NCBI RefSeq assembly: GCF_988242995.1
Contig: NZ_OZ547043.1
Length of the DNA: 64,000 bases
Direction: 5' to 3' (one strand)
In this document: piece after piece, positions 9,801-61,653 of the stretch
Position numbering within the stretch: the first letter of the stretch is position 1
Layout of the letters: each line of letters begins with the position of its first letter
Program-made: the position numbers and the translations under genes
Notes under the pieces: generated by a model
Told to the model about the DNA's origin: nothing
The model's input: only the letters and a program-made list of their open reading frames with translations
Database searches by the model: none

Positions 9801-10993
9801 ATGCAGGTAGCCCAGTTCAACTCTCACTACCAGTATGATCCCAAGTTCGAGCGCGGAATGTATCTGTATGAGCATCGTCGCTGTTTCAATAACATCATCG
9901 ACTACTGTAACTCACTTTGCTATCACGGTAAGTTGCAGCCTAAAAGAGGGATGGAAAAAGGACGATTTTCCCCGCAATGGGATATTTACATATTGATGGT
10001 AGAGGCATGAAGCCAAATGGAGGGAGCCGTCATAACCCTCTTGAAGCTGAAACAATAGCAGCATGGCTGGTGGCACATAAGGATGATATAGAGCGCCATT
10101 ACGGGGAACCACTGTACAAAGTTGTTGGTGTTGTGACGCCATTTTCGGCGCAGGTTAATGCTATCAAAATGTCATTGCGTAAGCTGGAAATTAATGGCAA
10201 AGACGAGCAGGGTTTACTGACAGTGGGGACTGTGCACTCCTTGCAGGGGGCGGAAAGGGCGATTGTTCTCTTTTCTCCTGTCTACTCAAAACATGAAGAT
10301 GGCAGGTTTCTTGATAGCAACAGCACTATCCTCAATGTTGCTGTCTCACGCGCTAAAGATAGTTTTCTGGTATTTGGCGATATGGACCTTATCGAGATGC
10401 AGCCCGCATTTTCGCCGCGAGGGTTATTGGCAAAATATCTCTTTTCTTCAGATAATAATGCGTTGCAATTTGAGTTTCAGAAACGACAGGATTTAATTTC
10501 CGCACATACACAAATTTCAACGCTGCATGGTGTGGAGCAGCATGATGAATTTTTGAACAAGACTCTTGCCGGAGCTCAAAAGAAAATAACGATTATTTCC
10601 CCTTGGTTATCCTGGCAAAAAGTGGAGCAAACGGGATTTCTGGCATCAATGGCTTTGGCCCGTTCCCGGGGCATTGATATTACCGTGGTGACGGATAAAA
10701 ACTGCAATATAGCGCATGTCGATGATGATAAGCGTCAGGAGAAACAACATCTGCTGAATGATGCTGTTGAAAAGCTCAATAAGATGGGTATCGCTACGAA
10801 ATTGGTTAATCGTGTTCACAGCAAAATTGTGATTGAGGATGAAGAACTGCTGTGTGTCGGATCTTTTAACTGGTTCAGTGCTACACGGGAAGATAAGTAT
10901 CAACGATACGATACGTCTTTGGTGTACCGTGGTGAAGGCGTAAAAAATGAAATAAAGGCAATATATGGTAGTCTGGATCAACGTCAGCTTTAA
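9801..10993 (+). pseudogene. yjhR: remnant of SF1 helicase (C-terminal lobe) fused to PLD-family nuclease domain; frameshifted and 5'-truncated
   Basis: Two consecutive frames (9801-10010 and 9977-10993). Helicase motifs V/VI ([28 protein letters not shown]) and an HxKxxxxD motif (HSKIVIED at about 10816-10839). No room upstream for a Walker-A lobe. Confidence 0.65.
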
Positions 10994-11575
10994 ATGTGAT
11001 GAGCCGTTCATGATACAGGAGTAGTAAAGGGCATATTTTACCAATGTTAAGGCGACTTTCCGTTTTATTGCGAGTCGCCTTTCCTGATTATAAATCTTAT
11101 TGTTTACCTAATCATTTTCCTTTGCATAATGCGCCTGGGATTAATGGCGGGTGCTTTTAGGAATGAAAGAAAATGCAAGCAATAATATAATAATGGCCTA
11201 ATTTCTTTGAACATCATTAAGCATATCATCATCGTCTATTTGCCAGAATCCGTCGACTTATAATCGCCAGAACGGCATATCAGGACGGTGCTGCGAACGC
11301 TGTGGCCCAAAACGTTCCAGTAAACTGTGTAGATGTTCGTAGATTTCCGAGCCATAATCGAAAAGGCGCGGATGTCTATTAAGGCATCCGGCTAATCTGT
11401 AAGCAATAACAACGGTTTATGCGGTACGCGTTTTTCACCCTTGTGCCAGATTATTATATTGGCAATTGCCTGCTGTTCGAGCCCGCAAGTGAAGAGATAT
11501 TACCTTGATCTCATTTGTTTTTTGTTGTCTACTCTGAGAACGAACAAGGACATCCCCCATGAATAAACTCCCCGC

Positions 11576-12556
11576 TCACCTTTCGCGCCAAAACTGCAAA
11601 ATTGCTTCTACAAATCTGTCAGAAATAATCCCCCGACGGGCTGCAGTGCTGAAATGACTGCTTCGCAGTGCCGTCGTCCAGTTCTCCGGTGACCGGTACG
11701 CTGAACCGTAATATCCCGTGCTTAAATCGTCCGGGTCTTCATCAGGCGCGTTCGTCAGTCCTCTTTCACCTTGTTGCTGGAAGTCGACGAAAATAATATT
11801 GGCTAAAACATTATTTTGATAATTGCCATAAATAGCTTCATACGAATGCGGGAAATTTTCTTTCCAGTACCAGGTGGTATCGCCGCAAAACCACGGCGCG
11901 TCAGTAATATTATTAAGCTGAGAATGGTATTGTTTTAGATCCCTACGAAAGGCTTCAACCATATGATTAAAGTGTTGAGGGTGTGACGCGTAGTCACTGG
12001 TCATTAAGTCAAATTCGCCTTGCATCCAGCATGCGCCGAGGAATTTGTTCTGCGGATTTTTTGCCAGTGCGGCTCGCGTTCTGCTGACTAAATCCTGGTA
12101 CAGCGGAGTATCCGTTCCCCAACGACAAGCATCATGGCTGGCTCCGTGCCGTTCTGAATATGTCCCTTCGCTGCCCGCGGTAAAAGCCGATCCGCCACGG
12201 CAACACGGAACGATAAGAATCCCTGCATTATCAGGAATGAAGGGCAGTAATTTCCGTGCAATATGCAGTGCCTGGCCAACGGTGCCGTACTGTGTTTGAT
12301 GATTCGTTGCCAGAGGATGGTGATAACCCTGCATATCCTGAACATCGTGTGGGCAGTGAGTCAGTGGAATAATGTCGTTAAAGTGACATGGCGGGCCTCC
12401 GGGATGCGTATGCGCAAATCTCGCTAATTGTTTAATTCTGGGATGAGGCGCATCTTCCCTGTCCGGTAATGGCAGTCCTTCGCCATACGCCATGGCATTA
12501 GACTGACCAGCAACGGTAAGAACATAGTAATAATCGGGCGATATTATTGCGTTCAT
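11576..12556 (-). CDS. nanS: 9-O-acetyl-N-acetylneuraminate esterase
   Basis: 335-aa ORF; start placed at MNAIISPDYYY... for about 326 aa; recognised as NanS/YjhS. Confidence 0.8.
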   Translation of the reverse strand: MNAIISPDYYYVLTVAGQSNAMAYGEGLPLPDREDAPHPRIKQLARFAHTHPGGPPCHFNDIIPLTHCPHDVQDMQGYHHPLATNHQTQYGTVGQALHIARKLLPFIPDNAGILIVPCCRGGSAFTAGSEGTYSERHGASHDACRWGTDTPLYQDLVSRTRAALAKNPQNKFLGACWMQGEFDLMTSDYASHPQHFNHMVEAFRRDLKQYHSQLNNITDAPWFCGDTTWYWKENFPHSYEAIYGNYQNNVLANIIFVDFQQQGERGLTNAPDEDPDDLSTGYYGSAYRSPENWTTALRSSHFSTAARRGIISDRFVEAILQFWRER

Positions 12557-43481: not shown

Positions 43482-43959
43482 AACAAACAACTCCTTGTCC
43501 GGAGAACCCCAACGGGGAAAACGAAATTCAATACCGTCGGTAATGACGAAAGGCAGGTGAGAAGGGCAACGAGACTGCAAATGTACTGAATTTCATGTAA
43601 TCAACCACACTGCCTGTGAACACACAGACAGAGAAATACTTTCTGACTTAGGGTCAGAATGTATAACGATTACAAATAGTCATCAGCACATTACACCTCT
43701 TGAATTGATGGGTTGCATAGAAAATATACACCTTAAGTGTAATTAAAATTTGCGGTTAATCAAAAGAGCGCGGTGGAAAGGGGAATATCTGCCGGGTACA
43801 GGACATGTAAAACGCGAGCTTGTTTCCGGAAAAATGTATCGTTTGCAGAAGAATAAAAATAGCCTGGAAAGCGCCTCGGGGAATGGGAAATTGCCGGGTG
43901 AGAATGGTTTTGTTAGTCGCTAAAGTCAGGCCATCTTTTTCAACAGGTGATGGATCGCC

Positions 43960-44874
43960 ATGACAAACTTCACGACCAGCACGCCGCATGATGCATTATT
44001 TAAAACCTTTCTCACGCACCCTGACACTGCGCGGGATTTTATGGAGATTCACTTACCTAAAGATTTACGTGAACTGTGCGATCTCGATAGCTTAAAACTG
44101 GAATCCGCCAGCTTTGTCGATGAAAAATTGCGGGCGCTACACTCCGATATTTTATGGTCGGTAAAGACCCGCGAAGGCGATGGCTATATCTATGTGGTGA
44201 TTGAACATCAGAGCCGCGAGGACATTCATATGGCCTTTCGCCTGATGCGCTATTCCATGGCGGTGATGCAGCGCCATATAGAGCATGATAAACGCCAGCC
44301 GCTACCGTTGGTCATCCCGATGCTATTTTATCACGGTAGCCGTAGTCCTTACCCCTGGTCCCTGTGCTGGCTGGACGAATTTGCCGACCCGACTACCGCA
44401 CGGAAGCTTTATAACGCCGCGTTCCCGCTGGTGGATGTTACTGTCGTGCCAGACGACGAGATTGTGCAGCATCGCAGAGTCGCCCTGTTGGAGTTGATCC
44501 AAAAGCATATTCGCCAGCGCGATCTGATGGGGCTTATCGATCAACTGGTAGTATTACTGGTTACAGAGTGTGCTAATGACAGCCAGATAACTGCGCTGTT
44601 AAATTACATTTTACTGACTGGCGATGAAGCGCGTTTTAATGAGTTTATCAGTGAACTTACCCGTCGAATGCCACAACACAGGGAGCGAATAATGACGATT
44701 GCAGAGCGAATTCATAATGATGGATATATAAAAGGGGAGCAGCGCATTCTTCGATTGTTGTTGCAGAATGGGGCGGATCCTGAATGGATACAAAAGATTA
44801 CCGGACTTTCGGCAGAGCAAATGCAGGCATTAAGGCAGCCCTTGCCTGAGCGCTATTCATGGCTCAAGAGCTAA
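43960..44874 (+). CDS. rpnD: Rpn-family (YhgA-like, PD-(D/E)xK) recombination-promoting nuclease, intact
   Basis: 304-aa ORF with D...E-x-Q nuclease core (DILWSV...YVVIEHQS). Confidence 0.7.
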
Positions 44875-46871: not shown

Positions 46872-47320
46872 GGGGGATATAGATTTATATATAATAAAAC
46901 GTTTTTATGTTGTTAAATTAAGTTATAAAAATTTTCCCGAGACAATTCATCAATAGGTATGGAGTGTACAGGAATATCTTCTTCACTAACCTCTTTAAAC
47001 TCATACTGATAACGGTCAAAAAACGCACAGTGATTACTTGTGTTTTTTGACTGACTTTACAACTCTCATTATTCGCTATTGTGCAGTTTCTCTAATTGTT
47101 TTATATCCTGGAATGTTAAATGTCAGCTACTGAATACTTTTTGATTGTTTGAGATTTATTTTCATTTGAAATTATAAAATCAGGTGATAAATGAGTTGTG
47201 ATTAATAGATGGTTGATATCATTTTTATCAAAAATTGATTTCTAGTATCGACCTTAAAAAATAGTTGTTGCCGCTTGGTTAATTATACGATATTTTGAAA
47301 AGTTTTCTTTCAAATTAGAA

Positions 47321-50300
47321 ATGTTGTGGGGTTTTGTTTTTGTATCTTTTATCTCTAAGGAGCTTGCTTTGGGTCAATCAGAATACATTTCATGGGTAAA
47401 ATGTACTTCCTGGCTAAGTAACTTTGTGAATCTTAGAGGGTTGAGACAACCGGATGGACGTCCTCTTTATGAATATCATGCAACCAATGCTGAATATAAC
47501 CAATTAACGCAGCTACTCTGTGCTGTTGGTCAATCACAATCTAATATATGTAATAGAGACTTTGCTGCCTGTTTTGTTCTTTTTTGCTCTGAGTGGTACC
47601 GCAGGGATTATGAACGGCAATGCGGATGGACGTGGGACCCTATATATAAAAAAATAGGGATTTCATTCACCGCCACAGAGCTTGGTACTATCGTACCGAA
47701 AGGGATGGAAGATTACTGGCTGCGCCCAATTCGATTTTATGAATCTGAACGACGTAATTTTCTCGGAACATTATTCAGTGAAGGTGGTTTACCTTTCCGG
47801 CTACTCAAAGAATCAGACAGTCGCTTTCTGGCTGTTTTCTCCAGGATCCTTGGACAATATGAGCAAGCAAAGCAGTCAGGTTTTTCTGCCCTTTCGCTGG
47901 CAAGAGCTGTCATAGAAAAATCAGCGCTGCCAACTGTTTTTAGCGAAGATACCTCTGTAGAACTTATCAGTCATATGGCTGATAACCTCAATTCCTTAGT
48001 ACTTACTCACAACCTAACAAATCACAAAGAACCAGTACAACAGCTTGATAAGGTTCACCCTACCTGGCGAAGCGAGTTTCCAATACCGTTAGATGATGAA
48101 ACAGGAACGCATTTTTTGAATGGACTGCTATGCGCAGCCTCTGTAGAGGCTAAGCCTCGACTACAAAAAAATAAGAGTACGCGTTGCCAATTCTATTGGT
48201 CAGAAAAGCATCCAGATGAGCTTAGGGTGATAGTATCTCTTCCTGACGAAGTTTCCTTTCCTGTAACTAGCGAGCCGTCAACTACGCGCTTTGAACTTGC
48301 CATTTATGAAGATGGTGAGGAAGTCTCTGGCCTTGGGCCAGCCTATGCTTCCCTGGAAAACAGACAGGCAACAGTTCGATTACGTAAAAGCGAAGTGAGA
48401 TTTGTCAGGCAAAATCCATCTGCAGGTTTGTCGTTAGTGGCTCGTGCTGGAGGGATGATTGTTGGGAGCATTAAACTTGATGACAGTGAAATTGCCATTG
48501 GTGAGGTGCCGTTAACCTTCATCGTTGATGCAGATCAATGGCTGTTACAGGGACAGGCCTCCTGCAGTGTGCGAAGCAGCGATGTTCTGATTGTGCTCCC
48601 TCGGGACAATAGCACTGTTGCTGGTTTTGATGGCCAATCGAGTGCAGTAAACGTATTAGGACTTAAAGCGCTACCTGTTAAGGGATGTCAGGACGTTACA
48701 GTTACAGCAAATGAAACTTATCGGATTCGCACCGGAAGAGAACAAATCAGCATCGGAAGGTTTGCTCTAAATGGAAAGCGTGCAAGCTGGGTTTGTCATC
48801 CAGATGAGACATTTATTGGTGTACCAAAAGTCATTTCTACACTACCAGATATTCAAAGCATTGATGTAACGCGTTACCTGAGCGGAATTTCAATTGAGCA
48901 ATGTCATATACAAGAGATGCTAGGGGCTCAATATCTTTCTATCCGTAATAGTAATAATGAAACGCTCTTGCGTCGCAAAATCGGTATCTTGCCTGCTGAT
49001 TTCAGTATTGAGATAAAAGGTGGAATGCACGCAAATGAAGGCACTATCGTAATCACCACACAGCATCCTTGTGTAGCAACACTTAAAGATAAAACATTGG
49101 AGGCTACACGTAAGCGTACTGAGGGGCGAACAGAGATACAACTCAAAGCGGAAGGGGTACCTCCGGCATTTATTACATTACAAGTTCTGCCTAATTTGGC
49201 GGCTGATACCATCGACATTGAGTTACCTTTCCCAGCTAAAGGCTGCCTTGCTCTTGATGTAAACGGACGTCCTCTGGATAAAAACATTACGCTGCATGAT
49301 CTGCTGGGTTCCAGAGCATTCCTGTTCTCCAGAAATGGTGAGCCGACAAAATATACATTGCAGTTGCATTTGCGCTCCATTAGTGGATTACAGGCATGGC
49401 ACGAATGGAGTTATACGGCATTGAGCGAGCGTCCTGTTGAATTGAATCTCTATAGTCTACGTGAACACATTGAAAATCTGATTTCACTTGAGGCAGGTAT
49501 TGATCAGGTTGTTGAGATGCGTATTACGGGGGCGGGTGTGGTCATGGCCTGGCAAATTCGTCGCTATAAATACAGCCTGCGCTATGATTATGAAAAAGAA
49601 CTATTACTCAGCCAGTCAGTGAACCATCGTGCTGGACAGATTCCTTCCCCCGTTATCATGCTGTTAAGTGAACCCGAGAGGAAATCCATTCCCTTAGCAT
49701 CAAGAATGAGCGAGGGAGTGCCTGTCGGTGAATATGAGTTGAGCTCAATCGTTAACAAAAACGGACCATGGTTGGTTGTTCCTAAACCGGGTGAAGAGAT
49801 GGCTTTTCGCCCCTGCTTCATTCGTGGCGAATCTTCGTTACCGGTAGAAGAAAGCAACATCCGCTCATTGCAGAAAGCGACCCAGCTTTTTAATCCACAG
49901 GCAGAAGTTAATACCATCACACGGGTTCTCGGACAGATGGCTAACGATCCTGCCCATTCCGGCTGGCAATTTATGCGTAGCCTGTACGATCAATTTGGTT
50001 ATTTACCGCTGGCAACCTTTGAAGTATGGCGTGCACTAGTGCAGCATCCGCAGGCATTGGCGATGTCGCTCTTCAAATTCGAAATGTCAGCAGAGTATCT
50101 GAGTCGTATTGAGAATGAGTTCCCTATTTTATGGGAGTTTTTCCCCATCTTTGAGATCAAAGCTGCATCTGAGCGTTTCAAATTGTTCCTGAGCCAAAAA
50201 GGTGCACCGGAGGAAACCCAGAAATTACTGGTTACCAATATGTTTCAACGGCTGGGGCTCGTGTTCCCGACATATGCCGATGAAATTGAGAAATGGTTAA

Positions 50301-50659
50301 GTAATGGATATCTCCCCCCGTCTATTCCTGAATCTTGTGTCCACGGGTGGTATCAGGAGCTCTTACGTGAGCACAGTGAAGCTCGCTGGCCTGAATACGG
50401 CTGCAAGCGTCTGTATAAATGGATGATGTCACAAAAAAATCCAGTGATTGGTATTAATCCTGACGCAAATCACCGCTATTCCGTGGCCTGGTTACCCGTC
50501 TTCGCCGCAGCGGTGGCAAGCGGAAATGCTTCTTTTGAATCTGTATTTGACCGTAAACCCGGTGCCGTATTTTTCCTGAGGCAAGTCAGGGATTTCGATT
50601 CCCGCTGGTTTAAGGCCATCTTCCAGTTCAGCCTGTTGCGTTATGTTGCTAAAAAATAA
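47321..50659 (+). CDS. large protein (1112 aa) of unknown function, first gene of candidate defence operon
   Basis: Uninterrupted 3.3-kb ORF. No nucleotide-binding or nuclease motif recognised by eye. An in-frame TTG at 47369 preceded by AAGGAG may be the true start. Stop lies 12 nt before the helicase gene. Confidence 0.8.
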   Translation: MLWGFVFVSFISKELALGQSEYISWVKCTSWLSNFVNLRGLRQPDGRPLYEYHATNAEYNQLTQLLCAVGQSQSNICNRDFAACFVLFCSEWYRRDYERQCGWTWDPIYKKIGISFTATELGTIVPKGMEDYWLRPIRFYESERRNFLGTLFSEGGLPFRLLKESDSRFLAVFSRILGQYEQAKQSGFSALSLARAVIEKSALPTVFSEDTSVELISHMADNLNSLVLTHNLTNHKEPVQQLDKVHPTWRSEFPIPLDDETGTHFLNGLLCAASVEAKPRLQKNKSTRCQFYWSEKHPDELRVIVSLPDEVSFPVTSEPSTTRFELAIYEDGEEVSGLGPAYASLENRQATVRLRKSEVRFVRQNPSAGLSLVARAGGMIVGSIKLDDSEIAIGEVPLTFIVDADQWLLQGQASCSVRSSDVLIVLPRDNSTVAGFDGQSSAVNVLGLKALPVKGCQDVTVTANETYRIRTGREQISIGRFALNGKRASWVCHPDETFIGVPKVISTLPDIQSIDVTRYLSGISIEQCHIQEMLGAQYLSIRNSNNETLLRRKIGILPADFSIEIKGGMHANEGTIVITTQHPCVATLKDKTLEATRKRTEGRTEIQLKAEGVPPAFITLQVLPNLAADTIDIELPFPAKGCLALDVNGRPLDKNITLHDLLGSRAFLFSRNGEPTKYTLQLHLRSISGLQAWHEWSYTALSERPVELNLYSLREHIENLISLEAGIDQVVEMRITGAGVVMAWQIRRYKYSLRYDYEKELLLSQSVNHRAGQIPSPVIMLLSEPERKSIPLASRMSEGVPVGEYELSSIVNKNGPWLVVPKPGEEMAFRPCFIRGESSLPVEESNIRSLQKATQLFNPQAEVNTITRVLGQMANDPAHSGWQFMRSLYDQFGYLPLATFEVWRALVQHPQALAMSLFKFEMSAEYLSRIENEFPILWEFFPIFEIKAASERFKLFLSQKGAPEETQKLLVTNMFQRLGLVFPTYADEIEKWLSNGYLPPSIPESCVHGWYQELLREHSEARWPEYGCKRLYKWMMSQKNPVIGINPDANHRYSVAWLPVFAAAVASGNASFESVFDRKPGAVFFLRQVRDFDSRWFKAIFQFSLLRYVAKK

Positions 50660-50671
50660 AAAGGAATAAGG

Positions 50672-53600
50672 ATGACTACACGCTATTTTTCGTCACTTAT
50701 TGAACAATCGTTGTCTCGTTCAACTGAAGCAACGCTCAGTATCATGGGCGTTACAAACCCGCAGTTGCGTGAACATCTCGCGCAGCAAATGGGGGCTGAT
50801 TGTGGGAAACCGGGCTCATTCCTTGCTTCTCCGGTATTCCAGCAAATGTTTGGCTGGAAGGAGTCAAACCACACGATGCGCAGTCTGACGGAAGGCAACG
50901 CATTGTTGAGCAAAGCAGTGGTTGATTCACTGGATGATCAGAGTAATGGCCGGTACCGATTTGGTGCTGACTGGAAGCCTTTTACACACCAGTTAGCCAG
51001 TTGGAAAGCTTTGCTGGAAAAGAAACATTCAGTGGTGGTAACCAGTGGTACGGGTTCAGGTAAAACGGAATGTTTTATGGTACCGGTGCTGGAAGATCTT
51101 TACCGGGAACTGCATGAAAATGGCAACAATCCGTTGGTCGGTGTCCGAGCCCTTTTTCTCTATCCATTGAACGCCTTGATTAATTCACAGCGCGAGCGTC
51201 TGGATGCCTGGACGCGTGGTTTTGGTACTGGGATCCGCTACTGCTTGTATAACGGAAATACAGAAGAGCTCCACGCAAAAATGAAAACAGTGCAGGATAA
51301 TAGACCAAATGAAGTCTTATCCCGTGAAAAGATGCGTCTGGAGCCAGCCCCGATTCTGGTGACCAACGGCACGATGCTGGAATATATGATGGTTCGCCAG
51401 GTCGACGCCCCGATTATCCAGCAATCCAAAGCACAAAAATCACTACGCTGGATTGTACTGGATGAAGCGCATACCTATGTCGGGTCGCAGGCCGCTGAAC
51501 TGGCACTCCAGCTGCGTCGTGTGATGACAGCGTTTGGCGTGACGCCAGATGATGTGCGCTTTGTAGCGACCTCTGCGACCATTGCCTGCAGCGACGCCGA
51601 AAAGCAGCTGAAAAAATTTCTCTCTGAATTATCCGGTATCCCGCAGGAGCGCATCGATGTTCTGGACGGAAGTCGGGTGATTCCTGAACTGGAACCATCC
51701 AAAAACGTTTCTGTTCCGTTAGACGAAATAGAGCAAATACCTGATCTGGATCTAAAAGATAAAAATGATAATAAAATTAAAGGGATAAGCCCTGAGCGCT
51801 TTTATGCGCTTACGCACTCCCCCGAAGCGCGTTACATACGTGAAATGTTGGTTAGCCAACCCAATCCAATGAAACTGGATGAGATGACGCAGCGGTTAAA
51901 TGCGCTGACAAAACAGCATTACAGCCAGCAGGAAGTACTGCGTTGGATCGATGTCTGTTCAGGGACTCAACCTAATGCAAAGGATCCCGCATTTCTTAAA
52001 GTCAGGGCGCATATCTTCCAGCGTAATACCCAAGGAATATGGGCTTGTGTTGATAAAGATTGCAGATTAAAGCACGGTACACCGCTCGAAAAAGGCTGGC
52101 CCTTTGGCTATGTGTATGTGAACCAGCGACAAAATTGTGACTGTGGAAGCCCTGTATACGAAGTTGCATTCTGTAATGATTGTAATGAGCCTCATCTTCT
52201 GGCGCAGGACAAAAAGGGCAAACTTGTCCAATGGGAAAATAAAGGTGGCGATGAGTTCTCCTTGCAGGATGAAGTACCTGTTGAACATGACACTACAGAG
52301 GAAAAAGTCGAAAAAGAGAACGGTTTCCTGCCTCCGTTGATTATTGCCGCAGGAGAGACCAGCGAGACAGGCTATACCCTACAACGCCTCGACCACCAGA
52401 CGCGCCGTATTGGCGTTATTAACAATGACAGCATTCCGCTGATTATTAATGATGTTGAACAGGTTTGTAGCGCCAGTGGCTGTGGCTACAGAGGCATGAG
52501 TGGGAAACAGCCCTTCCGGCGTGCACTATTAGGTGGGCCATTTTACGTTACTAATATCGTGCCCACCGTTCTTGAGTATTGTCAGGACTTTACCAGTGAT
52601 GAAGGCAAAGAGGGCGTCGGACCAGATTCGTTGCCAGGGCGAGGACGTCGACTCATTACCTTTACGGACAGTCGACAAGGTACAGCTCGAATGGCGGTGC
52701 GTATGCAGCAAGAAGCAGAACGCAGTCTCTTACGCGGAAGCGTAGTCGAAATTCTGAGCTGGCATCAACGGACGCAAACGTCCACGGCGCCGAATGCCAA
52801 TGCCGATCTGGAAAAATTAGCGGCCAGGGCAAAGCAAGCCCGTGAGCAGGCAGAAGAATATCGAAGCTGGGGAATGCCAGACCAGGCGAAATTGTCACAA
52901 GCACAGGCTGAACAGCTTGAACAGGCTTATCAGGCTGCAACCGGTGGAAAAGCAGCAACTACCCTGGTATCCCGCACCTGGACAGAAATGGTTAACGAGC
53001 TTAAAGATAAAGCCGATATCCGTGGCCCGGTACTGAAATATAACCACTATTTGCAGCCTGAAGTGTTTAATAAAAACGGCGGGCCACTAAAGCTTTCGGA
53101 AATGTTGTTGTTCCGGGAATTCATGCGTCGCCCTAAACGGACTAACAGCCTGGAAACACAGGGGCTGGTTCAGGTTGGTTACCAGGGGCTGGAGAAAATA
53201 CATAAGAGCCCCTTGCACTGGCAGGAAAAAGGATTAACGCTGGATGACTGGCGCGATTTTCTCAAGGTTACGTTGGATCTTTATGTTCGCGAAAGCAACT
53301 TCACACAGCTGGATGATGAGCTGAAAAACTGGATTGGTAGCCGTTTTTCATCAAAATTCGTCCGTAACCCGGAATCAAAAGATCCTGAAGATAATCAGAA
53401 CAGACGCTGGCCTCAAATTCGTAATGGCAACGTATCCCATCGTTTAGCGAAGTTACTGATGCTGGGGGCTGGATTCAAAACCGTCAATACGGCGACTATT
53501 GATATTATCAATACATGGCTGAAAGAAGCATGGGCCCAACTTACCGGACCACTTGCAGTACTGAAACCCGATGGCAACCGTTTTTATTTACCGAAAGAGC

Positions 53601-56600
53601 ATATGACTTTTTCTTTAATCACGGATGCCTGGATTTGCCCGGTAACCAATAAAATCCTGGATACGGCTTTTAAAGGCTTAACCCCTTATCTGCCCACCCA
53701 TATTTCGTTCGAGCATCTTACCCAGGCGCAATATGACACTTTTGTCGCGCAGAAAGTCACCATGCCGGAAATCTGGAAGCTGGATCGTTCACAGGAAGAC
53801 TACGCAGAGGGTCTGGCAAAAGCACGAGACTGGGTCAACAATGATCCGCTGATCGCACAATTGCGGTCGGAAAACGTCTGGACAGACATCAACGATCGTG
53901 TAGTGGAAGGCGGTTTCTACTATCGCACTGCCGAGCACTCTGCCCAGCAGTCGTCAGAACGCCTGCAAAGCTATGAAAAGATGTTCAAGAACGGGCAACT
54001 AAATGTTCTCAACTGTTCCACCACCATGGAAATGGGGGTTGATATTGGGGGCATTACTGCGGTGGTAATGAACAACGTTCCGCCACATCCGGCCAACTAT
54101 TTACAGCGCGCCGGGCGAGCCGGGCGTAGTAAAGAATCACGCGCGATCTCTTATACCCTATGCAAAGGTAACCCACACGACCAGCAGGTTTTTGCCAACC
54201 CACTCTGGCCATTTGAAACCATGATCCCGGCACCCATGGTCGCGATGAACTCCGCCCGACTGGTGCAACGTCACGTCAATGCATTATTACTGTCTGACTT
54301 TTTATGTAACGTTATTGGCGAAACCGATAAAGAGAAAACCAGCCTCGATAGCCTCTGGTTTTTCGGTGAAGATGACGGGCAGTCAAAATGCGAACGCTTT
54401 AAAGTCTGGCTGGAACGCCCGGTTCTTGATATCGACATGGCGCTGGAACGGCTGGTGAAAGGTACGGCGTTGCATGGCGCAAGAGCCGAACATCTGCGGG
54501 ATAAAACAATCAATGCGATCACCTTCCTGCAACAGCGGTGGCTCTCCGTTTATCGCGATCTCGTGACCCAGGAGCGTGAGTCGCAGCCGCAAACGCCTTA
54601 TCGTAAGCGCATAGAGCTGGAGAAGAAACGGCACTGTGGCGAGTATCTGCTGCGCGATCTGGCTGCCAGAACCTTCCTGCCGGGATACGGTTTCCCGACA
54701 GATGTAGTGACGTTTGATAACTTCACGATGGAAGATTATATCCGCGAAAAATCGCAGAAAAGTCGTGATAAAAAGGACCGTGAAGATAACGTCTCCCGTT
54801 ATAAAGGATTACCTTCCCGTAACCTCGGTGTTGCCATTCGTGAATATGCACCGGGAGCAGAGATCATTCTTGATGGTCGTGTCTTCCGCTCTGCCGGTGT
54901 CTCACTGCACTGGCACAACATTAATGCTGATACCAATGAAGCCCAGCGTCTGGATTGCGCCTGGCGCTGTCACAAATGCGGGACCATTGGCTATGAAGAG
55001 GGGATGAGCAGTTCCGGGATGCTCTTTTGCTCCAACAGCGCCTGCGGCGAAAAAATAACCATGGATAATCGCCGTCAGGTGTTGCAGCCTGCCGGGTTTG
55101 TCACCGATGCACACGCTCCGGTAACGAACAATATTGAAACCATGAAATTCGTCCCGGTTGTCCCCGCGTGGGTCTTTGTTAAAGCAGAGCCTGTACCGTT
55201 GCCTAACCCGCTAATGGGTTATATGGCTTCTGGGGCTGATGGGCATGTTTTCCAGCAAAGTTTGGGGGAAGGTGGACACGGTTATGCATTGTGTCTGAGC
55301 TGTGGCCGTGCGGAGTCGATGCTGAATGAAAATGATGCACCGAAAAGTATGGAAGCTCACTATCCACCGCGTCCGGGTAAAGCGGACCGCGACAGCCAGA
55401 ATCATCGTCTGATTTGCCCCGGTTCGACGGCACTCATGAAGAACGTCACCCTGGGCGCACTGGCGCGCACCGATGTCTTTGAAATGGTTCTGCGCAAACC
55501 GCAAAACGGCGAGTATCTGCCAGATAACACAGAAGAGGGGCGGATTGTCGCTATGACTCTGGCGGTTGCTCTGCGTCAGGCGCTGGCAGGCGTTCTGGGT
55601 ATCTCCGCCGCAGAACTCGGCTATTCTGTACGTCCGGTCAGACTGGAGGATGGGCAATCGGTATTAGCCGTTCAGCTTTATGATGTGATCAGCGGTGGTG
55701 CTGGTTTTGCCTCCAGCGCACCGGTACATATTGAAGCTATATTGCAGGGAATGGTGAAACAGTTAGGCTGCCGCCATTGTGATACTGCATGCAGTGAATG
55801 TCTGCTTGATTCCCAGACTCGCCACGATCACGATTTGCTGGATCGCAAAGTGGCGCTGGCTTGGCTTGGCGATGACTTCACGTATTACATCGGTTTACCG
55901 GATGAAGAGACATTCTCGCTGCCGGATGCCCGCTACTGCCCTGGCGCTATTGGCGATACGATTCGCCGGGCGATTAACGAAGGCGCTGAAAAGCTCACCC
56001 TGTGGATGACTGGCGCGCCCAATGAGTGGGATTTATACGGCCGTCAGTTCCGCGCGGCTATTCAGAGCTATCGGCTAAAAGACAACGTCGAGGTCGATCT
56101 TGTTATTCCTGCGGGAGTGGATGACCCAGACCTGTTGCATGAACTATCGCAATTTACTGCGCTGGGTGTGCGGTTGTGCCATGTTGAGCAGGAGCTGCAA
56201 TTACCGATTGTTGCCCAGGTCACCTTTGCCGATCGCGTGATGACGCTGGCCTCTCGCAGTCAGCAGGCAACGATTCCGGGGCCGGAGTGGCACCTGAATG
56301 ACGAACTGGTGGTGCGTAGTCTCGGTTATCAAACGGTAGAACTGAACGAGTTTATTCTGCCCGCTAAAGCCGCCAACGCTGTCGAGCGGGTCAAAGACAT
56401 TCAGATCCACAAACAGTTGAATGGACCACTTTCGCAGTTTGGGCAACGCTTCTGGGACGTGCTGTTTAACGACCATGAAGAAGCGCAGTCACTGATGAAA
56501 AACACGCGAATTACCGGCGTTCACTATACCGATCGCTATCTGCAAAACCCGGTTGCGCTGGCGTTGTTGGGATCAATTCTGAAACCGCTAAAAACAAAGC

Positions 56601-57016
56601 TGACCGATGGCGCTGAAGTGGCGCTGGATACGCTGTTTAAAGATAAAGATCGCCCCGGTAACCGGCCTTTCCATGACTGGATGAGCATAGCGGATTTTCA
56701 GGATTTCGCTGATCAGTGGTTTGCTGCTGCGCTGGGCAGGCCGATAGAACTGACGGTGTTCGATTCGCCGCGCGATATCCCTCACCATCGTAAACTGACG
56801 GTGACTTTTGAGGATGGTCAGGTATTGAAGATCCGCTTCGATCAGGGGATGGGCTACTGGCGCATCAACTTTGCATCGCAATGGCATTACTTTGATTTCC
56901 GCGATGACGTTTCTTTCCAGTTAGTCAAAATGGCTCAGGCCTGCAAGGAAGGGAATGTGGCCAACAGCGAAGAGAGCTGGGCAACGGATGTGCTGGTGGA
57001 GGTGATCGCCTCCTGA
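50672..57016 (+). CDS. giant SF2 (DEAH-type) helicase, 2114 aa, with Cys-rich zinc-ribbon clusters (DUF1998/MrfA-like); DruE-like candidate
   Basis: Walker [11 protein letters not shown] (51041-51070); DEAH box VLDEAH (51455-51472); FVATSAT; motif [10 protein letters not shown] (54104-54127); Cys clusters at 52046-52183, 54956-55045, 55292-55303 and 55769-55801; AAGGA RBS before the ATG. Confidence 0.85.
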
Positions 57017-57023
57017 TGATGTG

Positions 57024-57050
57024 CCGCTCCCGACGTCGTGTCGGGAGCGG
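57024..57050. terminator. bidirectional hairpin terminator between the convergent helicase gene and mcrC
   Basis: Perfect inverted repeat ccgctcccgac-gtcgt-gtcgggagcgg 8 nt after the helicase stop, followed by tattgtct. Confidence 0.55.
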
Positions 57051-59659: not shown

Positions 59660-60001
59660 TTACGCGACTTTCTGTTTACCGGCAATCACTCCAATAAACG
59701 CCTGCACCTGCTTTTGTTTACGTGCCGACAGCTTGCACACCTGGCGCAGCGACTGCATCAGTTCGCTCTCTTCGACGGCGAGTGGTTGGGCGGTGAGGAC
59801 AATACAGCCTTCCATCACTTTGACATCTACCGCCGTGCCGGTGGTAAAACCGGCGGCTTCCAGCCACTGACCTTTCAGGGTGATGGCGGGAATACGGCTG
59901 TAATCCGGGTAGCGACTCGCATAACTCACGGTTAATTGACGGTTATTTGCCGGGGAGACTTCTGCTTCGAACGGTTGTGCAATAGAATGCATGTCAGTCA
60001 T
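59660..60001 (-). CDS. symE: SOS-induced toxin SymE (AbrB-fold RNA endonuclease-like)
   Basis: 113-aa [55 protein letters not shown]...; upstream LexA box. Confidence 0.85.
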
Positions 60002-60072
60002 GATTACTATTCCTTAGAAATAGGGATTGTGATTAGCGGTGCGGGTGTGTTGGCGCACATCCGCACCGCGCT
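59996..60072 (+). ncRNA. symR: cis-antisense sRNA SymR (antitoxin RNA of symE), approximate
   Basis: Plus-strand TAGAAT -10 at 59983-59988 inside the symE 5' codons; GC-rich hairpin at 60036-60069 would end a roughly 77-nt transcript antisense to the symE RBS and start codon. Boundaries inferred. Confidence 0.35.
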
Positions 60073-60228: not shown

Positions 60229-61653
60229 TCAGAACTTTTTACGCGAGGCTTTTTTACCCCCGCTGGCTGCGCGCTCAGCTTTGATTTTCTCCAGCAACGC
60301 AGCGGCGCTGTTTTCTCCGCTGATTAAATCCGGGTTTTCGGCCCGCCACTGGGCGGTGAGTTCACCACGGAACGCTTTTGCCAGGATGGATTGCGTCAGG
60401 TTGTTGACGCGGGCTAAGGCGTTGTTGACCTGTTTTTCTATGGAGTCGGCGTAGGCGAAGAGTTGCTCGACGCGGCGAACGATTTCGTGTTGTTCTTCTA
60501 TAGACGGTAAAGGGACAAATGCATTTTTAAGATCTTTTAAATTTAATGTCTTTCTGGCGACCTCCTTAGATGACTGAACTAGCCATGTTTGCATAACTGG
60601 TGAACTTAACCATATATGGAGAAACATAGGAACAATAATCTTATATTCAGGAGATATTCTGGCAACGGCACGAGCGATATTAACATTTATATCTTCTCTA
60701 ACAATACCTATTCTACCTATAGCCCCAACAATTGTTACAAGAATGTCATTCTTTCGTACTTTGGAACGCTTATATTGTAAATCTATTTCCTTTGAAATTT
60801 TACGAAGATGATTTAAATCTACTTCACCATCGTTAATATCACAAACACGAATTAATTCTATACCGTCTTTTATATCATCTCCAGGTTGCACCACACCATA
60901 ACATAATGGTCTTTGTGTATTGATAATGTTATTCAAAATTGTTTCACTCCAGTCTTCTGGAATAAGGATTTTGTAGTTATCTAATTCAACTTTTTTTGTT
61001 ATAAAATCTTTATCTTCTTTGGTCAACCTACCAGTTACTGCCGCAGCCAACACCGCCTGACGAAAACGTTTCAGGATTTGTGGGATTTGCTCAAGGCGTG
61101 CTTTGGTGCTGTCTACCTGCGCCAGCAGCGTATCGAGTTTTTCAGCGATGATTTTTTGCTCGGCAAGTGGTGGCAACGGAAGTAGGGTATCTTGAAGTGT
61201 CCTGGAAGAAAGATGCTTTACAGTAACCGAGGACGTATTTGCATTGATTGCGGATAAATATCCTGGTAAGGCGTGATAGAAAAACCTTTTATTGTATTTG
61301 TCTTCCTGAACTTCAATTTTACATACTCGTTGATTTAACAGAGCTGGTTCTGAGCACCATATAGTTGCATTAAAATCACCATCCATTCCCACGATTAAGT
61401 CTTCGGGATATACCCAATATCCCTCAGGAATTTGACCCGAGTAATAAGTCGATGTATTACCTTTTAGAACATCACGAATTCTAATTAATGGTACACCATC
61501 TTTACGATTATTAAATTCTGACGACTTAAAAGCAAAACCGTTTGTGATGTTTGCTACGGAATCCATTGAAATACGTAACCAGCTATCATGGATTGAAAGT
61601 AACCCATTGATATTTTGCTCAATTAATTCTTTTGATGTTGAGTTGAAACTCAT
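60229..61653 (-). CDS. hsdS: type I restriction-modification specificity subunit
   Basis: 474-aa ORF with two variable target-recognition regions separated by a conserved central repeat (LPPLAEQKIIAEKLDTLLAQVDSTKARLEQIPQILKRFRQAVL) and a similar C-terminal repeat (LPSIEEQHEIVRRVEQLFAYADSIEKQVNN); 4-nt overlap with hsdM. Confidence 0.9.
   Translation of the reverse strand: MSFNSTSKELIEQNINGLLSIHDSWLRISMDSVANITNGFAFKSSEFNNRKDGVPLIRIRDVLKGNTSTYYSGQIPEGYWVYPEDLIVGMDGDFNATIWCSEPALLNQRVCKIEVQEDKYNKRFFYHALPGYLSAINANTSSVTVKHLSSRTLQDTLLPLPPLAEQKIIAEKLDTLLAQVDSTKARLEQIPQILKRFRQAVLAAAVTGRLTKEDKDFITKKVELDNYKILIPEDWSETILNNIINTQRPLCYGVVQPGDDIKDGIELIRVCDINDGEVDLNHLRKISKEIDLQYKRSKVRKNDILVTIVGAIGRIGIVREDINVNIARAVARISPEYKIIVPMFLHIWLSSPVMQTWLVQSSKEVARKTLNLKDLKNAFVPLPSIEEQHEIVRRVEQLFAYADSIEKQVNNALARVNNLTQSILAKAFRGELTAQWRAENPDLISGENSAAALLEKIKAERAASGGKKASRKKF

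Follow-up and report, generated by a model that had tools for sequence, protein, structure and literature searches.

A probable intact Druantia type III operon in the immigration control region of Escherichia coli

Organization of the gene pair

There are two long open reading frames (ORFs) on the + strand of the window, a 64,000-nucleotide stretch of contig NZ_OZ547043.1 (assembly GCF_988242995.1). They occupy positions 47321..50659 (1112 amino acids as the longest ORF) and 50672..57016 (2114 amino acids), and both are unbroken across 9.6 kb. The gap between them is 12 bp (50660-50671), and the arrangement is thus as the original prediction, made from the DNA letters, had described it. That prediction also proposed a ribosome binding site (RBS) overlapping the first stop codon. 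The RBS is present as a Shine-Dalgarno sequence, AAAGGA, read within the gap (50660..50665, + strand), but it does not overlap the stop and instead begins immediately after the TAA at 50657-50659.

The longest version of the first ORF, which corresponds to an intact yjiT and is called druH here, starts at ATG 47321. Its likely start, however, is TTG 47369, which would yield a protein of 1096 amino acids (47369..50659, + strand). A Shine-Dalgarno sequence, AAGGAG (47357..47362, + strand), is located six bases 5' of this codon. The RefSeq entry WP_001556397.1 ('protein YjiT') begins at the same TTG, homologous DruH proteins of 1094-1117 amino acids start at the same place, and the PADLOC profile alignment on the long ORF starts at residue 19. 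Several antisense ORFs of 83-150 amino acids inside druH and druE were treated as chance occurrences, since conservation of the sense frames extends over the whole of both genes.

The AT-rich intergenic region from the yjiS stop to the druH start (46872..47368, + strand) is the presumed promoter region. It has a GC content of 0.37 versus approximately 0.50 in the flanks. A scan of 46872..47368 for sigma-70 consensus sequences found no site, and this result is counted against the main interpretation presented below. A search for repeats in this leader yielded just short AT-rich inverted repeats (for example, 47015-47027 / 47039-47051) whose meaning is doubtful. At the other end of the pair, a GC-rich, terminator-like hairpin with an 11-bp stem and a 5-nt loop (57024..57050, not assigned to a strand) lies between the convergent stop codons of druE and mcrC. 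The terminator scan passed over this hairpin, whose T run is weak.

The helicase DruE

The second gene, druE (50672..57016, + strand; RefSeq WP_001472887.1), encodes a YprA/MrfA-like SF2 helicase. Residues 1-2110 align with positions 1-2053 of the 2055 positions in the PADLOC profile for DruE3 (PDLC00037; 2692.5 bits), and residues 5-2089 align with the 'DEAD/DEAH box helicase' of PDB entry 9tu7 (1018 bits). The RecA1 domain is recognized by Pfam DEAD (PF00270) at residues 106-310 (50987..51601, + strand; E = 2e-22) and includes both the Walker A sequence GSGKT at residues 128-132, with K131 (nucleotides 51053-51067), and the DEAH sequence at residues 264-267 (nucleotides 51461-51472). The RecA2 core matches Pfam Helicase_C (PF00271) at residues 1085-1153 (53924..54130, + strand; E = 1e-11) and contains motif VI at residues 1145-1152 (nucleotides 54104-54127). 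The positions originally given for Walker A, DEAH and motif VI are exact. Among four DruE sequences, K131, D264, E265 and H267 are invariant, as are Q1145, R1146, R1149 and R1152 of motif VI and the SAT motif.

The cysteine clusters of DUF1998/MrfA type that had been noticed in this protein are also borne out. DruE has 35 cysteines, and 23 of them do not vary in a comparison of four DruE sequences sharing 35-60% identity with it. The MZB/DUF1998 zinc-binding domain (Pfam PF09369) is matched at residues 1631-1711 (55562..55804, + strand; E = 7.9e-9). Within this match is a CxxCxxxCxxC sequence at 1700-1710, and all four of its cysteines (C1700, C1703, C1707 and C1710) are invariant. The MZB cysteines align with C1681/C1683/C1687 of the E. 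coli protein EcDruE, whose mutation abolishes defence (10.64898/2026.05.13.724758). Residues for which EcDruE mutants lose defence are intact here, namely G128/G130/K131, D264/E265, R1149/R1152 and C1700/C1703/C1707, and those checked do not vary among the four DruE sequences.

Alignment places a putative tandem PLD-like region at the C terminus, spanning approximately residues 1760-2114 (55949..57013, + strand), with the start being approximate. In an alignment with DruE proteins from O157, Pseudomonas and Methylotuvimicrobium, D1787, D1954-R1955-Y1956, K1990 and H2038-x-R2040 are invariant. The DRY and HxR sequences match the pocket residues D1917-R1918-Y1919 and H1999-R2001 of the P. aeruginosa protein PaDruE (10.64898/2026.05.13.724313). 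A Pfam scan of the DruE C terminus identified no PLDc domain, and this region lacks the canonical HxK(x)4D motif. The alignment with 9tu7, a type III-A protein, extends through this region up to residue 2089, and the pair has a putative III-A architecture. P. aeruginosa P0155 was tried as a numbering guide for the PaDruE and PaDruH mutants and was rejected, since its numbering does not fit and points to a different P. aeruginosa DruE. Through P0155 the DRY and HxR motifs alone could be matched, and R22, K28 and E64 of PaDruH were not placed.

The partner protein DruH

The product of druH matches the PADLOC DruH3 profile PDLC00049 over its full length (1829.8 bits) and the NCBIfam model NF038336 (YjiT_fam) with 1276.9 bits (cut-off, 150 bits). 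A Pfam scan of DruH gave no match even at E = 10; the library used is older than the YjiT_N and YjiT_2nd models, and both of these domains are present in precomputed Pfam annotations of DruH homologues. An AlphaFold2 model (mean pLDDT of 83) has helical domains at the N terminus (residues 1-269) and C terminus (834-1095) with a beta-rich region in between (272-820), and the predicted fold thus shows the published helical/Ig-like/helical layout. When this model was compared by Foldseek with PDB entries up to 2026-04-08, which included no DruH entries, the result was weak matches to multi-Ig proteins with TM-scores of no more than 0.27, which have no bearing on family membership. The solved DruH structure 9tud aligns with the DruH of the window with E = 1.7e-21.

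The relationship between this protein and the tested EcDruH is distant. The DruH of O157 has 1119 amino acids, as does EcDruH, and both come from the same Zorya-Druantia-ARMADA island; PDLC00049, the profile of the window clade, matches it over residues 11-964 (E = 2.7e-54). A profile built from one alignment, A1, matched 9tud among PDB sequences with 825 bits. This match was set aside as circular, because one member of A1 is the O157 DruH, a protein of 1119 amino acids like 9tud and probably nearly identical to it. At approximately 20% identity A1 is also unreliable for residue comparisons, and it is with this reservation that Y670 of the EcDruH ssDNA/ATP pocket appears as Y/F in the clade while N672, R1031, H1062, R1064 and K1067 appear as non-conserved residues or gaps. 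The N-terminal part of DruH, by comparison, includes R23, D29, R31, E75, R78, R79 and E138-GGLP, which are invariant in 51 DruH sequences.

Genomic location and distribution

The gene order is yjiR, yjiS, druH-druE, mcrC, mcrB, symE, hsdS, hsdM, hsdR and mrr. The pair sits in the E. coli chromosomal immigration control region, and the neighbours are those given in the original prediction, which placed the pair between yjiS and mcrC and near mcrBC, symE and hsdRMS. The site of the Zorya II / ARMADA II island is in another part of the window, where it is empty. Whether yjhR derives from the last helicase of ARMADA was also considered, and no similarity was found.

The statement that K-12 carries remnants here, with the intact pair being variable among strains, proved accurate. 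Relative to the window, K-12 has two deletions, the first of which (48878-51894) takes the C-terminal half of DruH together with Walker A and DEAH of DruE, and the second of which (54045-56228) takes motif VI and the MZB domain. Because both deletions together remove every helicase motif, the yjiT/yjiV copy of K-12 is dead. BL21-type strains likewise carry deleted remnants. Among 5,426 complete E. coli genomes, approximately 231 have a copy of intact length, and these make up approximately 231 of the 675 genomes with any match if intactness is taken as at least 80% of the region being kept. The decayed form prevails among E. coli genomes that carry any of the locus, which is counted against the main interpretation.

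The pairing of the two genes extends to distant genomes. In three of three sampled (S. Typhi, P. schmalbachii and Methylotuvimicrobium), a gene for a DEAD/YjiV_N/Helicase_C/MZB helicase directly follows druH, although in one of two S. Typhi contigs (L005) no gene is called after druH. The P. schmalbachii and Methylotuvimicrobium loci (two of the three sampled) adjoin hsdRMS genes for type I restriction-modification (R-M). Co-occurrence had been proposed as a check of the original prediction, as had the profile searches described above, which recovered DruH3, DruE3, DEAD, Helicase_C and MZB/DUF1998. In the literature, the DruE and DruH trees agree with each other (PMC13192584).

Probable assignment to Druantia type III

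These observations lead us to conclude that the pair is very probably an anti-phage system of Druantia type III, intact and made up of two genes, with druH upstream, druE downstream on the same strand, and no other Druantia accessory genes beside them. For this copy, the conclusion is based on the unbroken ORFs, on the family and domains that the proteins match, and on the conservation of catalytic residues and of the gene pairing. It agrees with the DruH/DruE proposal made originally. The accompanying suggestion of a diverged or undescribed system finds no support, since the family is described and has its own models in PADLOC, NCBIfam and newer versions of Pfam (YjiT_N, YjiT_2nd and YjiV_N), although the clade is distinct from the tested E. 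coli one. PADLOC/DefenseFinder-type tools detect Druantia III automatically. The identity is already known and the discovery value is small, given that the type was first defined in 2018 and was the subject of mechanism studies in 2026.

Other assignments for the helicase were weighed against this one. The YprA-type helicases of DISARM, Dpd, ARMADA and Druantia types I, II and IV are related, and PADLOC profiles for DruE1 (541 bits), DruE2 (395), DruE4 (360), DpdJ (94) and DrmA (34.7) all give partial matches. These are confined to a shared region, approximately residues 1107-1732, whereas DruE3 spans the whole protein; helicase families other than the DruE types, including BrxH, remain below 95 bits in PADLOC, and NCBIfam NF041067 (DpdJ) reaches 88.3 bits against a cut-off of 800. 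There are also no DruA-D, DruM/F/G, DrmB/C, methylase or dpd genes at the locus, where the sole partner is the DruH3 protein, and membership in one of these other systems is thus highly improbable. We give even less credence to the idea that the protein serves in housekeeping DNA repair, as an enzyme of the MrfA/YprA or Lhr-like type, and has no defence role. There is distant similarity to B. subtilis YprA/MrfA (PDB 6znp, E = 1e-16) and to models TIGR03817 and TIGR04121, but the scores of 117.9 and 78 bits for these models fall far under the respective cut-offs of 874.1 and 850. DruE is also approximately three times the length of MrfA, has a DruH partner, resides in a restriction island, varies among strains and is deleted in K-12.

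A different concern is that the operon, while intact in sequence, is silent or non-functional in this strain, either because it is decaying or because nucleoid proteins repress it at the AT-rich leader. The minority of matching E. coli genomes that retain the region, the remnants in K-12 and BL21-type strains, the division of the S. Typhi DruE into 845 and 1281 amino acids, and the 37% GC leader lacking a consensus promoter in our scan all fit this explanation. We nevertheless consider it quite unlikely. Neither ORF is broken, and every catalytic residue checked is intact. At least 25 unrelated isolates, whose sources include turkey, chicken, cattle, pig, dog and human, share the 10.1-kb segment at 100% identity, and with 1866 and 3969 members both protein clusters are large. 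Judged from sequence, purifying selection would give this pattern of intactness, identity and cluster sizes.

Possible mechanism and significance

If the pair is a Druantia III system, its likely mode of action can be drawn from homologues that were dissected by several groups in 2026, and for which phage protection has been shown (E. coli ATCC 8739/EDL933, P. aeruginosa and M. smegmatis). By analogy, DruE, as a large SF2 helicase in the YprA/MrfA family, would form a dimer and load on exposed 3' single-stranded DNA (ssDNA) such as tails, forks, and phage replication or recombination intermediates. It would then translocate in the 3'-to-5' direction and unwind duplex, with the RecA core and the zinc-binding MZB domain presumably needed for defence. 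The C-terminal PLD-like module may degrade DNA, a point that is disputed between studies: the PLD-like domains are dispensable in EcDruIII and essential in PaDruantia (10.64898/2026.05.13.724313). DruH, the partner with many Ig domains, might bind ssDNA in competition with ATP, as reported, or alternatively trim 3' ssDNA or sense phage proteins. The studies differ in the role that they assign to DruH (sensor, ssDNA binder or exonuclease) and disagree on whether it binds DruE directly. Both proteins would be required, and the expected outcome in E. coli is that phage are cleared directly rather than by cell suicide.

Another possibility, which we view as unlikely, is that the clade in the immigration control region works unlike the studied cluster 11 system. 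Because DruH is approximately 21-24% identical and its ssDNA/ATP pocket is not evidently kept, this clade could respond to another trigger or regulatory input. It might also act together with its neighbours, McrBC and the type I R-M system. For instance, breaks made by restriction and processed to 3' tails could load DruE, and the island would be one cooperative unit. The adjacency to McrBC and type I R-M provides a natural setting for testing cooperation between Druantia and restriction. In addition, the K-12 pseudogenes yjiT/yjiV can now be viewed as remnants of an ancestor that was a complete Druantia III operon.

Comparison with known systems

One known relative is MrfA/YprA, the mitomycin repair helicase of B. 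subtilis (6znp), which shares the SF2 RecA core and the MZB/DUF1998 zinc domain. Published DruE structures have a related 3'-to-5' translocation core (10.64898/2026.05.13.724313). MrfA is a repair enzyme of 751 amino acids and, unlike DruE, has neither a DruH partner nor a PLD-like tail. The K-12 yjiT/yjiV remnant occupies the same locus between yjiS and mcrC and is 96-99% identical in nucleotides over its retained parts, differing by the absence of 48878-51894 and 54045-56228.

[quoted passage not shown] It has the same druH-druE order, with proteins of 1119 and 2104 amino acids there compared with 1096 and 2114 here. The DruE proteins align end to end, retain the helicase motifs, zinc cysteine clusters, MZB domain and putative C-terminal PLD-like region, and both best match PDLC00037. 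However, DruE is 33-35% identical and DruH 21-24%, and the DruH sub-profiles differ (PDLC00049 for the window, PDLC00041 for cluster 11). The residues of the EcDruH ssDNA/ATP pocket are not evidently conserved in the window clade, in an alignment that is unreliable at this distance. The spacing between the genes is 12 bp in the window versus a one-base overlap in O157, and the genomic home is beside mcrBC/hsd rather than on a tRNA-associated mobile island with Zorya II and ARMADA II. The window copy is a member of a clade distinct from the studied system. We found no report of functional testing for this clade, which is counted against the main interpretation and makes this copy worth noting as its representative.

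Other relatives are the pairs of Pseudomonas (P. schmalbachii and P. aeruginosa P0155), Methylotuvimicrobium and S. Typhi (STY4851), which belong to the same clade as the window copy. They reside in other hosts and islands, and the S. Typhi DruE is split. Their genes are adjacent and co-directional, with DruE approximately 60% identical and DruH approximately 45% identical (63% for S. Typhi).

Organization of the druH-druE operon

There are two co-directional ORFs on the plus strand, separated by 12 bp as in the original prediction. The longest ORF of the first gene, druH, spans 47321-50659 (+) and encodes 1112 amino acids, and the druE ORF spans 50672-57016 (+) and encodes 2114 amino acids. 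The ORF list includes no ORFs of comparable size on the opposite strand. The RBS for druE had been described as overlapping the first stop codon. Instead, AAAGGA at 50660-50665 (+) begins directly 3' of the TAA stop and is located six bases before the ATG. The most likely start codon for druH is the TTG at 47369, which is six bases 3' of an AAGGAG sequence. This codon is preferred because it is used by the RefSeq annotation, because homologues are 1094-1117 amino acids long, because the S. Typhi homologue starts at the same residue, and because the first residue of the longest ORF to align with the PADLOC profile is residue 19.

A GC-rich hairpin (57024-57050) lies between the convergent stop codons of druE and mcrC. 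Along the operon (47000-57000) there is a steady rise in GC content, from ~0.37 in the leader through 0.44-0.47 in druH to 0.53-0.55 over the last third of druE, beyond which it is down to 0.39-0.42 in mcrCB.

Assignment to Druantia type III

The suspected resemblance to Druantia III is supported by PADLOC, wherein the full-length top matches are DruH3 for the first protein (PDLC00049, 1829.8 bits) and DruE3 for the second (PDLC00037, 2692.5 bits). Matches of the second protein to DruE1, DruE2 and DruE4 are confined to a shared region at approximately residues 1107-1732 (360-541 bits), and DpdJ, BrxH, DrmA and Cas3 each score below 95 bits. Repair-helicase families in NCBIfam were also considered for DruE and rejected, with scores far under their cut-offs. 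This is an already known system that is annotated by standard defence-finding tools.

The helicase motifs of DruE, GSGKT (residues 128-132), DEAH (264-267) and QRAGRAGR (1145-1152), are exactly where they had been placed originally, and the anticipated domains are found by Pfam as DEAD (106-310), Helicase_C (1085-1153) and MZB/DUF1998 (~1631-1711). Among solved structures, 9tu7 (a 'DEAD/DEAH box helicase' of 2108 amino acids) aligns with residues 5-2089 at 1018 bits. Across an alignment of four DruE sequences with 35-60% identity to the window protein, 23 of its 35 Cys residues are invariant.

The first protein matches the NCBIfam model YjiT_fam ('STY4851/ECs_5259 family') with 1276.9 bits, where the cut-off is 150. 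A Pfam scan of DruH with a library older than YjiT_N and YjiT_2nd gave no match. The solved structure 9tud ('DruH') aligns with an E value of 1.7e-21, mostly over the N-terminal 266 residues. An AlphaFold2 model (mean pLDDT 83) has a helical region at 1-269, a beta-rich region at 272-820 and a second helical region at 834-1095, and this predicted layout is the same as that published for DruH. Invariant residues among 51 DruH sequences are grouped in the N-terminal domain (R23, D29, R31, E42, E75, R78, R79, R119 and E138-GGLP).

Possible mechanism

By analogy with its homologues, DruE would dimerise, use 3' ssDNA tails and forks as loading sites and unwind DNA in the 3'-to-5' direction. Mutations of homologous DruE proteins in Walker A, DExH, motif VI or the MZB Cys residues abolish defence, and all of these residues are present in the window DruE and invariant in the alignment. 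The role of the C-terminal PLD-like pair is disputed between studies. It is an active nuclease according to one E. coli study and work in P. aeruginosa (10.64898/2026.05.13.724313), but another E. coli study describes it as dispensable and lacking the canonical motif. Pocket residues D1787, D1954-R1955-Y1956, K1990 and H2038-x-R2040 are invariant in the alignment, and the position of H1874 is Gly in O157 DruE.

DruH has been described as a phage-protein sensor whose nuclease activity depends on dimerisation, as a 3'-5' exonuclease whose N-terminal cleft is conserved, and as an ssDNA binder that is inhibited by ATP. The ssDNA/ATP pocket residues of EcDruH, the protein of the tested E. coli system, have no evident conserved counterparts in the window clade, in a region where the alignment is unreliable.

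Genomic locus and distribution in E. coli

The gene order is yjiS, druH-druE, mcrC, mcrB, symE, hsdS, hsdM, hsdR and mrr, which agrees with the predicted placement between yjiS and mcrC and adjoining mcrBC, symE and hsdRMS. The pair thus resides in the immigration control region, defined in earlier work as extending from yjiT to mrr. The window is E. coli DNA, and the 10.1-kb segment is 100% identical in strain 789 and at least 24 further isolates. The complete E. coli genomes searched number 5,426, of which 675 contain some match to the segment and 231 retain 80% or more of it. A more sensitive search using the 5' 3.9 kb of druE as query yielded 235 genomes. The K-12 pseudogene remnants yjiT and yjiV named in the original prediction are twice-deleted copies of this pair. 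Relative to the window, one K-12 deletion (48878-51894) removes the C-terminal half of DruH plus the Walker A and DEAH motifs of DruE, and the other (54045-56228) takes out motif VI together with the MZB domain.

An Rpn-family recombination-promoting nuclease gene (yjiP/yjiQ, rpnD; 43954-44874, +) is intact here (WP_000181202.1), and its K-12 counterpart is a pseudogene with an internal stop according to RefSeq. The hsdS gene (60229-61653, -) has only patchy likeness to K-12 hsdS (a 127-base stretch at 61047-61173 and again from 61648), whereas hsdM and mcrBC are 94-97% identical. Because of this difference, the type I system probably has a DNA specificity other than that of EcoKI. The symE toxin gene (59660-60001, -) overlaps the antisense SymR RNA (59996-60072, +), which is the sole Rfam match in the window (RF01809; 93.1 bits, gathering threshold 61).

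A second Druantia III site

In the stretch at 11230-11600, a gene fragment for a 'phosphorothioated DNA-binding restriction endonuclease' (11230-11476) is located ~100 bp from a nanS fragment and the nanM, nanC and fimB genes that come after it (from 11573). The endonuclease and nanS landmarks flank the entire Zorya II - Druantia III - ARMADA II island in O157:H7 strain 1130, and therefore the site of this other E. coli Druantia III island, empty or scarred, is present in the window as well. Just upstream, the run at 8750-11458 comprises topAI (YjhX toxin), yjhQ, yjhP, a frameshifted helicase gene yjhR and the endonuclease fragment, which are genes and remnants related to defence or mobile elements. 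We considered yjhR as a remnant of the last O157 ARMADA helicase, but there is no similarity between them.

Homologous pairs and relation to tested systems

DruH homologues are found across Enterobacterales at 60-77% identity (63% in S. Typhi), and at ~41-48% in Pseudomonas, methanotrophs, Aeromonas and other Gammaproteobacteria. DruE homologues have the same taxonomic spread at higher identity (50-88%). A DEAD/YjiV_N/Helicase_C/MZB helicase gene is located directly 3' of druH in all three sampled loci (S. Typhi, P. schmalbachii and Methylotuvimicrobium), with that of S. Typhi split or uncalled. In P. schmalbachii and Methylotuvimicrobium, hsdRMS adjoins the pair. In the S. Typhi locus (L005 / L006, 13313-19637), DruE beside STY4851, the DruH homologue, is called as two ORFs of 845 and 1281 amino acids in one contig and no gene is called at this position in the second contig, which suggests that S. 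Typhi DruE is a pseudogene. An IS element lies just downstream of this position.

Druantia III has been tested from E. coli ATCC 8739 / EDL933 / ECOR19 (DruH 1119 and DruE 2104 amino acids), where Zorya II and ARMADA II are on the same island, and in P. aeruginosa and M. smegmatis backgrounds. We found no paper with a functional test of the window clade; one preprint locates the E. coli YjiT representative in the immigration control region. Published DruE/DruH trees have 15 clades (PMC13192584). Compared with the O157 copy of the tested E. coli system, the window DruE is 33-35% identical over its full length and DruH is 21-24% identical, whereas identities to the Pseudomonas and Methylotuvimicrobium pairs are ~60% for DruE and ~45% for DruH. 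The window and O157 DruE proteins share the same best PADLOC profile. The two DruH proteins have different best sub-profiles, although O157 DruH nonetheless matches the DruH profile of the window clade over residues 11-964. Because of these low identities to O157, the shared DruE profile and the different but cross-matching DruH sub-profiles, the window pair belongs, on sequence comparison, to the family of the tested E. coli system but to another clade within it.
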